IMG/VR virus record: IMGVR_UViG_2695420822_000017 | Strand: one strand, 5' to 3' | Length of the DNA: 4,891 bases | Source of the DNA: a virus | Lineage: Duplodnaviria > Heunggongvirae > Uroviricota > Caudoviricetes | Part shown: positions 1 through 4,891 of the stretch, piece after piece | How the letters are laid out: every line of letters starts with the position of its first letter | Numbering within the stretch: position 1 is the stretch's first letter | Made by a program: the position numbers and the translations under genes | Notes under the pieces: generated by a model | What the model saw: the letters and a program-made list of their open reading frames with translations, nothing else | Database searches by the model: none | What the model was told of the DNA's origin: nothing

Positions 1-31
1 TACACTAAATCAGTAAGTTGGCAGCATCACC
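1..31 (-). mobile_element. IS1 terminal fragment (left inverted-repeat end); body of the element lies beyond the window start
   Basis: Positions 1-31 (TACACTAAATCAGTAAGTTGGCAGCATCACC) are the reverse complement of the IS1 left end as I recall it (GGTGATGCTGCCAACTTACTGATTTAGTGTA). The outermost IS1 base maps to position 31, so the element runs leftward out of the window. Composition changes immediately after position 31. Recalled from memory, not searched. Confidence 0.6.
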
Positions 32-807: not shown

Positions 808-1260
808 TTACCCTATAGGTGCTACTGGCCATTCAATATCCGGTGCAGTTGATGTATCAACACGGTTCAGCAACACCCGATACTTTTTCCAGGCTTCCAG
901 CAACAAGGTTTCTTTCTCCGTTGCGATCTCCAGATCCACAGCATCCTGAAGCGGCGCTATATGCTCACTGGCTACCTGCATCAGGCTGTTTTTTGTTTCT
1001 TCCGCCTCCCGGATCCGGAACAGTTTTTCTGCTTCCGTATCCTTCACCCAGGCTGTGCCGTTCCACTTCTGAAACTCCCCTTCCGGGGATAACCAGGTGA
1101 CATTTTCCGGTAATGAGCCGAGTTCAGAAATAAATAACGCGTCGCCGGAAGCCACGTCATAAACCGTTTTACCCCGATGATCTTCAACGAGATGCCACGA
1201 TGTTTGCAGGCAGACCTGTATGAGGCGGAATATATGCGTCACCTTCACCAATAAATTCAT
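808..1260 (-). CDS. tfa: tail fibre assembly protein (Tfa-like), C-terminal reading frame; gene appears frame-disrupted
   Basis: The 150-aa ORF carries [28 protein letters not shown]...[23 protein letters not shown]...[26 protein letters not shown], which matches lambda Tfa as I recall it. Its first ~20 residues ([20 protein letters not shown]) are an out-of-frame reading of the Tfa N-terminal region, so the annotated ATG at 1260 is probably not the native start. It sits directly downstream of stf, as in lambda. Confidence 0.8.
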
Positions 1261-1312
1261 TAGTTCCGGCCAGCAGGTTATAAATTTTTATGGTCCGTGC
1301 TTGTTCACTCAT
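1184..1312 (-). pseudogene. tfa: Tfa N-terminal fragment in a different frame (native tfa start, prematurely terminated)
   Basis: ATG at 1312-1310 lies 11 nt downstream of the stf stop. Translation gives [37 protein letters not shown], matching the lambda Tfa N-terminus from memory, then IVASR and a TGA at 1186-1184. The conserved Tfa sequence resumes in the +1 frame from about position 1200. Confidence 0.6.
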
Positions 1313-1323
1313 TCTGAATGCCA

Positions 1324-4300
1324 TTATGCGAGCCTCACAATATAGTTAAATGCGATGTTTTTGACGGTGTTTTCCGCGTTACCAGCAGCGTTAACGGTGA
1401 TGGTGTGTCCATGTGAACCAATCGCAACAGAGTGCGTATGAGCACCAATACCGACAGTATGCGCGTGTGCACCCGCAGATGCTGCTGTGCCGGACAGTGA
1501 GTGTGTATGGTTTCCTTCTGAAGATGATTTACCTACCCATTGGGAGGTGCCACTGGTTAATGAGCCACTGATACCAACCTGATTAGTCCCGCTAACTTGA
1601 GTACTCCCTGCCGGAAACATTCCAGTAGGTTGACTCCCGCTATTCGTTCTGGGCCCAGTCTGACTATGTTGGTGGGCCCCAGCTGAACTTGTAGAGCCGC
1701 TCAGACTGTGCGTATGCGCCCCGGTGTTATTCGTGGATTTAGTGCCGTAATCAAACGACGATGTGGTTTTCGTCCCCAAATCCGTACTGGATGCGCTGGC
1801 GCTGTGGGTGTGCGATTTAATGCCATCCTGTTCCTGAGACAATACGGCACGACCACTGGCGGGCTTGCCCTTAATCGTCCAGCCACGCATATCAGGGATC
1901 ACGCCTGACGGATAAGCGGCTGCAAGTTTCGGGTAAGCAGATTTGTCAAAAGTCTGCCCCTGCATCAGGGCATAACCAGACGGAACGGTATCTGATGGCC
2001 ACGGGATTGGTGCACCGACTGGATAAAACTCTGCAGGAGGATGAGCCGAGGTGTAAAGCTGCGCCCACGGCGACCAGTTTGCGTCGGTCGTATCCCGTCG
2101 TGAACGAATAAATGCCGGAGCATGAGCACCGCTTGTACCACTCCAGCCGATGAGTAACTCACCTTCGCCAACGGCTGTCATCCCTTTCAGGTGAATGATA
2201 TTTCCATACGCTGTTGGATATCCGTTGTTATACACCTCGTATAACTCAAGACCTGCTGCCCCCTGCGTATTGTCTGTCAGCGCGGCTACCCGACCTTTTG
2301 AAGCCAGATTAACTGATGATACTGCTGTTCCACCTGACGGTAGCGCCCCGATCTCTGATGCCGTTGGCTTATTTCTGGAGTTATAGTCCCTTCGCCAGCC
2401 AGGTGAATAATCTGTTCCGTGATTAATATAGGTAAACTGGGCGTTGGTTGTTCCGCCACCGCTGGATGTGGTCGGAGTGGTAATGCGGATCGTCATCGCT
2501 GACTTTATCCCCATTACTTCAATGACAGCTCCGGCGAGATGAATATTACCGCAGCCAGTATCAGTAATGATTTTATTATTGCCATAAGACCAGGAACCCT
2601 TGCACATCCAGTATGGATGGTTAAATGCTCCCTGAGAATCCAGCCACTCGATAAACTGTGCAGTCGTCCAGTTTCCTGTTGTTGTGCTTACTGACCCACC
2701 GAAGGCACGGCAGGCACCAATATTTTTCGTAAAGGTGTCTTTGCCAGGGATATCCGCACCGTTCTGATCTTTCTGCAGACGTTTCTCAGCATTGTCATTG
2801 GCTGCTTTTACTGCCTTTGGCGTTGCCGCCAGCGTTTCAGACGTGCTGTTGGTCGCGCTGCTTAGCTGGATTATCCCTTTCTGTGCTGTCGTTGCATCCT
2901 GTGCGGTGTATTTCCCGTTAGCCAGGTCATACGCGGCCTTAACGGCTTTTGGTGTTGCCGCCAGTGACTCGGAAGTGCTGTTAGTCGCACTACTGAGCTG
3001 TACTATCCCCTTTTTCGTCGTGCTCGCATCCTCCAGCGCCACGGCGGATGCAATATCCTCTGCCCGTTTTGCCGCTGTCTCAGCGCGCGTTGCTGCAGAT
3101 TCCGCCGTACTTTTGCTCTGAGCTGCTGCCGTCGCACTACCAGCAGCCTCTGTCGCCTTCGTGGATGCCGTCGTGGCGCTGCCCTTCGCTGCTGACGCCT
3201 GTCTGGTCGCCTCATCTTTTGAAGCAGACGCCGATGATGCCGATGACGCCGCCGAACTGGCGGACGATGCGGCAGCCGTTTTTGAGGATTCTGCACGGGT
3301 TTCCGACGCTTTCGCGTTCGTTTCGGATGTCTTCGCTGCGGAAGCTGACCTCGCTGCTGCCGTGGCCTGCTCAGTGGCTTCGCCAGCCTTCGTTGTGGCT
3401 GTTGAAGCGGATGATGCGGCGCTTTCTGCCGATTTTCCGGCGGCGGTGGCACTGGCTGAGGCCTGCCCGGCACTTGTTGACGCGGCACTGGCAGATAATG
3501 CAGCCGCTGTTTTTGAACCTGCCGCAGCTGAGGCGCTCTGTCCCGCTGCTGTTTCAGAAGACTTAGCGTTCGTCTCGGACGTTTTTGCCGCCTTCGCGGA
3601 ATTTCCTGCCGCCGTTGCCGAGGAAGCTGCACTACTGGCACTTGATGATGCATTCGTTTCTGAAGATTTCGCTGCCTCTTTTGAGGCCGCCGCACCCCGT
3701 GCCGAGGTGGCAGCTTCTGACGCCTTCGTGGTCGCTGTGGATGCAGAAGTGGCTGCCGATTTTTGTGATGCTGCGGCATTCGTTTCTGACGTTTTCGCGG
3801 CACTGGCGCTGGTAGCTGCCGCGCTTTTTGATGACTCTGCAGCAGCACTTTTTGCTGCTTCACGGGCCTTTGTCGATGCCGTTCCTGCGCTGGAAGACGC
3901 TGACTGAGCCGACGACGCGGCCTGTCCGGCTGACGTGCTGGCGGCACGTGCTGAGGCTGCAGCATCGGTTGCATGAGTTGCCGCCTCGCTGGCTGATTTT
4001 TTCGCGGCTGCCGTATTCTGTGCAACCGCGGAGGCGTTACGTGACACCTCTTCCACCATCTGCTCAAAGCGGCGCAGTGCCTCCGGTCGGACATCATCCT
4101 CCGTCATGGCACCGAGAAAATCATTCAGCGTACCTGGTCTGGAACCTTCATAGACGGTAATGGTCCCGGCATGTGAAGGCGGAAAACCTTCAACCAGCAG
4201 GGTGACGCTGTACTGACCATGCTCAACATCCATGCTGTAACGTCCGGCTTCATCCGGATTTTCAGAGGCCACCGTGTTCACCACCATCGTGCTGCTGGTT

Positions 4301-4383
4301 CGTCTGGCCTTCAGCACAATGGTGCAGTTCTGTACTGGTTTTCCTGTGCCATCTTTAAGCACGCCAGAAATTTTTACTGTCAT
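1324..4383 (-). CDS. stf: lambdoid side tail fibre protein (Stf-like), 1019 aa
   Basis: Uninterrupted 3060-nt ORF. N-terminus [22 protein letters not shown]...[14 protein letters not shown]...[13 protein letters not shown] and C-terminus ...[49 protein letters not shown] match lambda Stf as I recall it. A long Ala/Ser/Thr-rich shaft (~3064-4026), two tandem fibre repeats and seven HxH motifs near the C-terminus are present. A GGTGGA Shine-Dalgarno-like sequence lies about 5 nt upstream of the ATG. Confidence 0.95.
2767..3012 (-). repeat. tandem ~132-bp direct repeat inside stf encoding two phage tail-fibre repeat units
   Basis: The protein has [27 protein letters not shown]... (codons 458-501, coordinates 2881-3012) immediately followed by [27 protein letters not shown]... 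(from codon 502, coordinate 2880 downward). The same periodicity shows in the antisense frame ([22 protein letters not shown] / [22 protein letters not shown]). Confidence 0.75.
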
Positions 4384-4395
4384 ACTTTTCCACCA

Positions 4396-4430
4396 ATAAA
4401 AAAAGCCCGCAGCAGTGACGCCACGGGCTT
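4396..4430 (-). terminator. rho-independent terminator between lom and stf, minus-strand orientation
   Basis: On the minus strand: AAGCCCG (4430-4424), a 14-nt loop, CGGGCTT (4409-4403), then a T-run (plus-strand A7 at 4398-4404). It lies about 100 nt downstream of the lom stop and ends about 12 nt before the stf start codon. The loop is larger than ideal. Confidence 0.5.
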
Positions 4431-4534: not shown

Positions 4535-4891
4535 TCAGATACGGTATCCGATACCAACAATAAATGCATCCGTTCGCCAGTCACCACTACCGGAACCTTC
4601 ATAAGCAAGGTCAATGGTCACGGATTCGGTCGGGTTAAACTGCACGCCAGCCCCCCACGCCAGAGACGTGTTGCTGTGGCGACCGTCATCACTTCCGGTC
4701 AGCACATCGTGCGTTTTCCCCTTGTTGTCAGTTACGCGGAGATAATCCCCGGAGAAAGTCGACACACGGCTGTAAGCCACACCCACCATCGCATACGCGC
4801 TGAACCATTCATTCACGCGTACAGACGGCCCCGCCATCACGCTGAACCAGCGGTTACGCACGGAATCTTCATGCCAGCGGGTATCGCTGTA
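4535..4891 (-). CDS. lom: Lom/Ail-family outer membrane beta-barrel protein, 3' portion (5' end outside window)
   Basis: Translation reads ...YSDTRWHEDSVRNRWFSVMAGPSVRVNEWFSAYAMVGVAYSRVSTFSGDYLRVTDNKGKTHDVLTGSDDGRHSNTSLAWGAGVQFNPTESVTIDLAYEGSGSGDWRTDAFIVGIGYRI*, which matches the C-terminal half of lambda Lom from memory. The reading frame is open to the window edge; the listed ORF start at 4861 is an internal Met. Stop codon is at 4535-4537. Gene order lom-stf-tfa is as in lambda. Confidence 0.9.
   Translation of the reverse strand, partial: YSDTRWHEDSVRNRWFSVMAGPSVRVNEWFSAYAMVGVAYSRVSTFSGDYLRVTDNKGKTHDVLTGSDDGRHSNTSLAWGAGVQFNPTESVTIDLAYEGSGSGDWRTDAFIVGIGYRI

Follow-up and report, generated by a model that had tools for sequence, protein, structure and literature searches.

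A recent 65-bp deletion has very probably made the tail-fibre assembly gene tfa a pseudogene in a decaying lambda-like prophage of Shigella sonnei

A lambda-like prophage segment from Shigella sonnei carries an open side tail fibre gene, stf, directly followed by a tail-fibre assembly chaperone gene, tfa, whose coding sequence is divided between two reading frames. Is this the trace of a real lesion, a defect of a draft assembly, or a layout from which an active chaperone is still made? Comparison with intact tfa genes and with other copies of the same locus makes it very probable that a real and recent 65-bp deletion has turned tfa into a pseudogene in a decaying prophage. Four other explanations (a shortened product from an internal start, supply of the chaperone in trans, an artefact, and programmed frameshifting) are improbable even when taken jointly.

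The window and its tail-fibre genes

The stretch of DNA that was analysed (the window, 4,891 bp; IMGVR_UViG_2695420822_000017) is the entire contig CXBP01000227.1 of a Shigella sonnei draft assembly (GCA_001255875.1). Both tfa fragments bear "[Shigella sonnei]" in the names given by their sources, the CXB* accessions neighbouring this contig are S. sonnei isolates of Holt et al. 2012 (PMC5447701), and HE616528.1 is S. sonnei 53G, of lineage II (PMC5447701). Read from right to left, the minus strand carries the 3' part of lom, a terminator-like hairpin, stf and tfa; downstream of tfa lies an AT-rich stretch devoid of large ORFs, which is followed by the end of an IS1 element (the first 31 bases). 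The window thus covers the right-hand end of the tail module of a lambda-like prophage, and its relatives in RefSeq genomes of E. coli have the same gene order: J, Ail/Lom, "prophage tail fiber N-terminal domain-containing protein" and "tail fiber assembly protein". The features are as follows:

808..1324, minus strand: tfa, tail-fibre assembly chaperone gene with a 65-nt internal deletion, very probably a pseudogene, in two frames (alignment to intact tfa genes)
1184..1324, minus strand: native-frame tfa remnant of 46 codons (Tfa residues 1-41 plus IVASR, then TGA)
1202..1203, minus strand: deletion junction, 65 nt missing, with a 2-nt ambiguity of position from the shared CA (alignments)
808..1260, minus strand: shifted-frame tfa ORF of 150 codons (Pfam Caudo_TAP at residues 29-148)
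1324..4383, minus strand: stf, side tail fibre gene, a single uninterrupted ORF of 1019 codons
4402..4431, minus strand: terminator-like hairpin and T run between lom and stf
4535..4891, minus strand: 3' part of lom (Ail/Lom outer-membrane protein gene), cut at the contig end (gene 1-357 of the related record L012; PF06316)
1..31, no strand assigned: presumed terminal inverted repeat of an IS1 copy abutting the prophage end, at the contig end (IS1 transposase genes follow in relatives)

We take bases 1-31 to be the IS1 terminal repeat from the known sequence of IS1. IS1 transposase genes lie directly beyond this point in three related records (L003, L013 and L020), and in many E. coli relatives, which do not have this IS1, the match to the window starts only from base 32.

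The initial annotation had called the fibre gene intact, and this is so: stf is one open frame from 4383 to 1324, and its product contains the domains phage_tail_N, Phage_fiber_2 and Collar. Its stop codon overlaps the start of tfa on the same strand (TAATG; 1324-1326). The part of stf that is rich in Ala and Ser also contains two long spurious ORFs, 3003-4097 on the minus strand (364 aa) and 3161-3907 on the plus strand (248 aa), and degenerate direct repeats phased at 21 nt, in which Tandem Repeats Finder detected no array; the lambda record likewise has an antisense "orf206b" within stf. Two weak matches to the Rfam family isrG within stf, scoring 25.6 and 18.8 bits where the gathering score is 100, were treated as chance.

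The tfa gene was assigned to its family by a match to the Caudo_TAP profile (Pfam PF02413 and PF28596) and by its position directly downstream of the fibre gene. Its homologues are 193-194 aa long and annotated as "tail fiber assembly protein". In lambda the same gene (orf-194, NP_040605) also directly follows stf with overlapping stop and start codons, and the parts retained in the window are approximately 95% identical to it in DNA and 92% in protein; unlike lambda tfa, which is one frame of 194 codons, the gene in the window has codons 42-63 deleted and its frame broken. A different annotation also falls on this DNA: window 848-1046 (minus strand) gives a full-length match to the Rfam family IS009 (RF02111; 218.5 bits against a gathering score of 117), which lies wholly within the tfa coding sequence and on the coding strand. 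This suggests that what the IS009 "RNA gene" family picks up is largely coding DNA of tfa in prophage remnants, with no separate RNA involved.

Two further observations concern the AT-rich stretch. A 21-N run at 569-589, with AAACGT on both sides, is a scaffolding artefact; the site is continuous, with no extra sequence, in L004-L007, in L011 and in complete E. coli genomes. On the plus strand, a hydrophobic ORF of 33 aa at 414-515, MKIQSKLIVLLNIIIAFILFELLAQKFGLSTLF, resembles the small stress-response membrane protein YncL (NCBIfam NF000537: E-value 1.3e-5, 25 bits, under the cut-off of 35). It lies in a stretch of 27-30% GC between a promoter-like site (351-379) and a strong terminator-like hairpin (691-715), the whole region spanning 351-715, and has no annotation in RefSeq relatives; the prophage end may thus carry a cargo gene for a small protein that has escaped annotation.

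The 65-nt deletion and the two frames of tfa

By comparison with lambda Tfa, the initial annotation had proposed that about 65 nt are lost between ...GLPAN and SWHLVEDH... and that tfa is thereby put in two frames, and had suggested alignment to lambda and other tfa genes to locate the indel. Nucleotide alignments to tfa of E. coli SCU-111, to lambda and to L011, the nearest intact allele, bear this out: there is one gap of exactly 65 nt and no second indel, and the flanks of the junction are 100% identical to L011. The junction reads ...CTGCCTGCAAA[CA]TCGTGGCAT... and lies at window 1203|1202 +/- 2 shared bases, the CA present at both ends of the lost segment constituting a microhomology of 2 nt. 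The repeat search and Tandem Repeats Finder detected at the junction no direct or inverted repeat beyond this CA and no repeats of the inversion type, and no hairpin that could have promoted the deletion was found, the intact segment folding like shuffled sequence (z -0.76).

The residues removed are S42-S63 of Tfa (22 residues). The native-frame product is MAFRMSEQ...GLPAN followed by IVASR, 46 codons from ATG 1324. Starting from ATG 1312, the initial annotation had counted 42 codons, and that frame does run 42 codons to the TGA at 1186-1184; the native start, however, is ATG 1324, in frame and 12 nt further upstream, which is the start used in lambda orf-194 and in the RefSeq homologues. The Tfa body, from SWHLVEDH... 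to the C-terminus, is carried in the other frame by ORF 1260..808, in agreement with the switch originally placed near 1200-1204. This ORF consists of 20 out-of-frame residues (1260-1201), Tfa residues 64-193 (1200-811) and a TAA stop codon (810-808), and it matches Pfam Caudo_TAP over profile positions 1-130 of 131 (E-value 2.3e-44, 151 bits). In precomputed Pfam matches the intact 193-aa Tfa has Caudo_TAP_N and Caudo_TAP and the 150-aa product has Caudo_TAP alone; no NCBIfam model matches Tfa. The window therefore holds no uninterrupted ORF of about 190 aa with Caudo_TAP_N and the C-terminal domain, the gene being split into 46 and 150 codons, and since 65 nt is not a multiple of three no single frame reads through it. 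The deletion is not a chance pattern: it specifically sets this gene apart from over 5,000 loci homologous to it.

Could the two frames be joined, or the second be used alone? Programmed +1 ribosomal frameshifting has in its favour the approximately 77 nt that the two tfa frames share (1260-1184). The split, however, is a derived deletion, and all homologues are read in one frame; no known +1 shift site was seen in the overlap, where frame 0 ends in CGT TGA A, and a fused product would still miss 22 residues. A conserved two-frame layout with a shift site, as found in lambda G/GT or IS1 insAB', is not what we see here, and we give this explanation a negligible probability.

A shortened Tfa made from ATG 1260, or by re-initiation after TGA 1184, and acting on Stf either alone or with the 46-aa N-terminal fragment, has more to be said for it, since ORF 1260..808 stays open for 150 codons with the complete Pfam Caudo_TAP region, and the conserved C-terminal helical domain (118-176 in the structural model) would be untouched in the deleted allele. 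Other N-terminally shortened tfa ORFs are also common in E. coli (e.g. MAVFNSDEA..., 140 aa, on 167 contigs). Against this, there is nothing special about ATG 1260, which all intact alleles possess unchanged and out of frame, and the sequence upstream of it, read by eye, offers only a GGA four bases away. The first 20 residues of the 150-aa product would be unrelated to Tfa, and residues 1-63 of the domain that binds the fibre (PMC9608196) would be missing. Furthermore, the deleted allele is derived and in the minority, and there is no sign of selection for a shortened Tfa. Overall, we regard an active product from an internal start as quite unlikely, and a deletion pseudogene remains our preferred interpretation of the split gene.

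Distribution of the deleted and intact alleles

A draft contig with a scaffolding defect of its own invites the suspicion that the lesion is an artefact, as the initial annotation had considered in the form of a draft-assembly error or a homopolymer or indel error in the reads. In favour of this suspicion are the N run with its duplicated AAACGT, the chimeric nature of a scaffold from the same project (L008), and the fact that tfa is a multi-copy sequence. Nevertheless, the finished chromosome of S. sonnei 53G has the identical junction, as do assemblies made independently at other centres and with other assemblers: L004-L009 and L012-L015 all contain it and represent at least three submitter series in addition to 53G, the exact 150-aa product is encoded on 104 contigs including 53G (HE616528.1), and the exact 46-aa product, named "phage tail protein [Shigella sonnei]", on 109. 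A loss of 65 nt with a 2-nt microhomology is, moreover, neither of the homopolymer nor of the k-mer type of error. We consider an artefact of a scaffolded short-read draft extremely improbable, and regard both this reading and that of recoding as effectively excluded.

The deletion has a narrow distribution. When a 51-mer centred on the junction was searched for in 5,426 complete E. coli genomes and 50,697 phage records, no match spanned the junction. A 38-nt junction sequence has three matches in IMG/VR, two of them apparently S. sonnei draft contigs (L008 and L009), and none in the GTDB species-representative genomes; the latter result is expected, because GTDB presumably does not treat Shigella as a separate species. 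In contrast to the 104 occurrences of the deleted allele, the intact 193-aa allele (P0031) is present in 3535 blocks of the collection.

At least eight megabase-scale Shigella records, S. sonnei 75/02 (CP019689.1) among them, also have the intact allele at this locus, which identifies the deletion as the derived state. The locus order is shared: J, lom, stf, tfa, IS1, an AraC-type remnant, an integrase, a yfdC-like gene and mlaA. Five of these chromosomes with the intact allele, complete or nearly so, were compared with 53G and are 99.8-100% identical to it over approximately 12.5 kb apart from the 65 nt, which are the sole structural difference in the module between 53G and these five; between L011 and the window, the 65 nt and one SNP are the only differences in 4.3 kb. 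Because the flanks in the intact-allele chromosomes are nearly identical, the deletion appears from these comparisons to be a single recent event and a minority allele within S. sonnei.

Erosion of tfa has also occurred elsewhere. Defective E. coli prophages carry truncated tfa remnants, C-terminal fragments of 131-148 aa that fall in the same 90% cluster as the 150-aa product and are another sign of frequent tfa erosion. They differ from the gene in the window in that their 5' part is absent altogether or they start elsewhere, the 65-nt junction being specific to Shigella assemblies (0 of the 5,426 E. coli genomes).

The two tfa alleles do not segregate with the two versions of stf. An stf of 1019 aa precedes the deleted tfa in L004-L009 and L012 and the intact tfa in L010 and L011, and an stf of 1027 aa precedes the deleted tfa in L013 and L014 and the intact tfa in L019-L021 and L023-L027 (L022 has an stf call of 1041 aa, L028 no stf call). 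Differences between the stf versions are confined to the 5' third of the gene, and from window 3034 up to the IS1 end there are none (window 3034-4400 compared with L013, L015 and L019-L028). The occurrence of both alleles behind both versions could reflect recombination between prophage copies or arbitrary paths of short-read assembly through a 3-kb identical repeat. It leaves our conclusion unaffected, because the finished 53G chromosome has an intact stf of 1027 codons directly before the deleted tfa.

We also considered that the deleted allele may not be neutral: a Tfa reduced to its C-terminal domain, or split into 46 and 150 aa, might act on Stf or a different fibre; alternatively, loss of the chaperone might have been selected in a sublineage of S. 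sonnei, together with gene conversion between two prophage copies. Selected loss with gene conversion would, if true, explain why both tfa alleles stand behind both stf versions; we nevertheless attach little probability to a non-neutral allele.

Decay of the prophage and fate of the chaperone

The initial annotation had offered an inactivated chaperone in a decaying prophage as one interpretation, and this agrees with the state of the element, in which J is broken, IS1 abuts the module and an intact tfa exists at the same locus elsewhere. Four longer contigs (L004-L007) contain the stf of the window together with the deleted tfa. In the two of these whose gene J was examined (L004 and L006), this gene for the essential tail-tip protein is interrupted by a TGA in frame at codon 68, and its reading frame shifts near codon 620. 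In the coordinates of L004 the J pseudogene spans 5731-9182, with the TGA at 5932 and the frame change around 7563-7645. The 53G-type locus has an intact J and a lom shortened to 135-160 aa, and in all versions of the locus IS1 lies immediately beyond the AT-rich stretch. Further disabling lesions are thus present in the same element (J, lom, IS1), and these are the usual marks of an eroding Shigella prophage.

The broken J also bears on the possibility that the fibre is still assembled because the same genome has a second, nearly identical prophage tail module whose intact cognate tfa acts in trans. S. sonnei drafts do hold two lambdoid J genes: the scaffold L008 is a chimera of two J genes that mixes both types and thereby shows that one S. 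sonnei genome can hold both. That each tfa allele is found behind both stf versions suggests exchange between copies, and E. coli genomes have a median of two tfa-like places. However, with the J of the window-type prophage broken, a fibre folded in this way would have no functional tail to sit on, and the Tfa-family gene found nearby in L015 (173 aa, Mu-like) is a different gene and not the cognate allele. We find supply in trans highly improbable.

PMC9608196, citing the structure of TfaMu (5YVQ), describes Tfa proteins as modular: an N-terminal beta-sandwich binds the fibre, and trimer assembly is the task of a conserved C-terminal domain. TfaMu, the product of gene U of phage Mu, belongs to the same family, and its C-terminal helical region aligns with ours: residues 127-191 of the intact Tfa match residues 113-174 of 5YVQ chain B (E-value 1e-8). 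Nothing else aligns, and the N-terminal domains cannot be aligned by sequence. The Mu gene is intact and lies in an invertible segment, whereas the locus studied here has no inversion repeats. An AlphaFold2 model of the intact 193-aa Tfa, built without an alignment, has a mean pLDDT of 51.5 and values below 50 for the N-terminal 98 residues; only its helical hairpin in the C-terminal part (118-176) is believable, and the deleted residues cannot be placed in a fold. The alignment to TfaMu, this hairpin and the Pfam matches of the intact and 150-aa products all agree with the modular layout. The deletion takes out part of the N-terminal, fibre-binding half of Tfa, and the conserved C-terminal helical domain is left only in the shifted frame, behind a weak start.

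With codons 42-63 lost and the frame shifted, translation that begins at the native start, itself coupled to the stop of stf, ends after 46 codons, and the remaining 130 native codons sit in another frame. Presumably no full-length Tfa is made, and the 46-residue product would be without most of the N-terminal domain and the whole C-terminal domain that drives trimer assembly. Stf, encoded next door, would therefore not be folded by its own chaperone, and from this we infer loss of chaperone function. As the prophage is already decaying (J, lom, IS1), the simplest view of the lesion is neutral decay that has spread among a minority of S. sonnei isolates. Some findings count against this: stf is still an open frame of 3 kb, the 150-codon ORF, which annotation pipelines call as a gene, keeps the whole C-terminal domain and about half of the N-terminal domain, and both tfa alleles stand behind two stf versions. 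The open frame of stf probably means that there has been too little time yet for a lesion in it.

The closest parallel is laboratory lambda, in which the same two-gene side-fibre module has a natural frameshifting lesion: stf is divided into orf-401 and orf-314 ("PaPa" as opposed to "Ur-lambda"). The lambda record gives stf as two CDS, and the record of HK630 remarks "missing C relative to Ur-lambda". The lesion of laboratory lambda is a single-base loss in the fibre gene that leaves tfa intact, whereas the one described here removes 65 nt from the chaperone gene and leaves the fibre ORF intact. Side fibres are dispensable for lambda-type phages, as Hendrix and Duda reportedly found in 1992, and laboratory lambda has its frameshift in stf itself; loss of tfa would therefore be expected to be tolerable even in a viable phage.

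The split of tfa is thus a case of ordinary prophage decay, an event of a known kind that involves no new mechanism and no sequencing error. It raises no new question about tail-fibre assembly, and beyond correct annotation its importance is slight. We suggest that both ORFs be annotated as one tfa pseudogene instead of as a "tail fiber assembly protein" of 150 aa and a "phage tail protein" of 46 aa. The 65-bp deletion could help to recognize a subset of S. sonnei isolates by a simple PCR or in silico, and as a case of prophage erosion in Shigella it is both clean and very recent.
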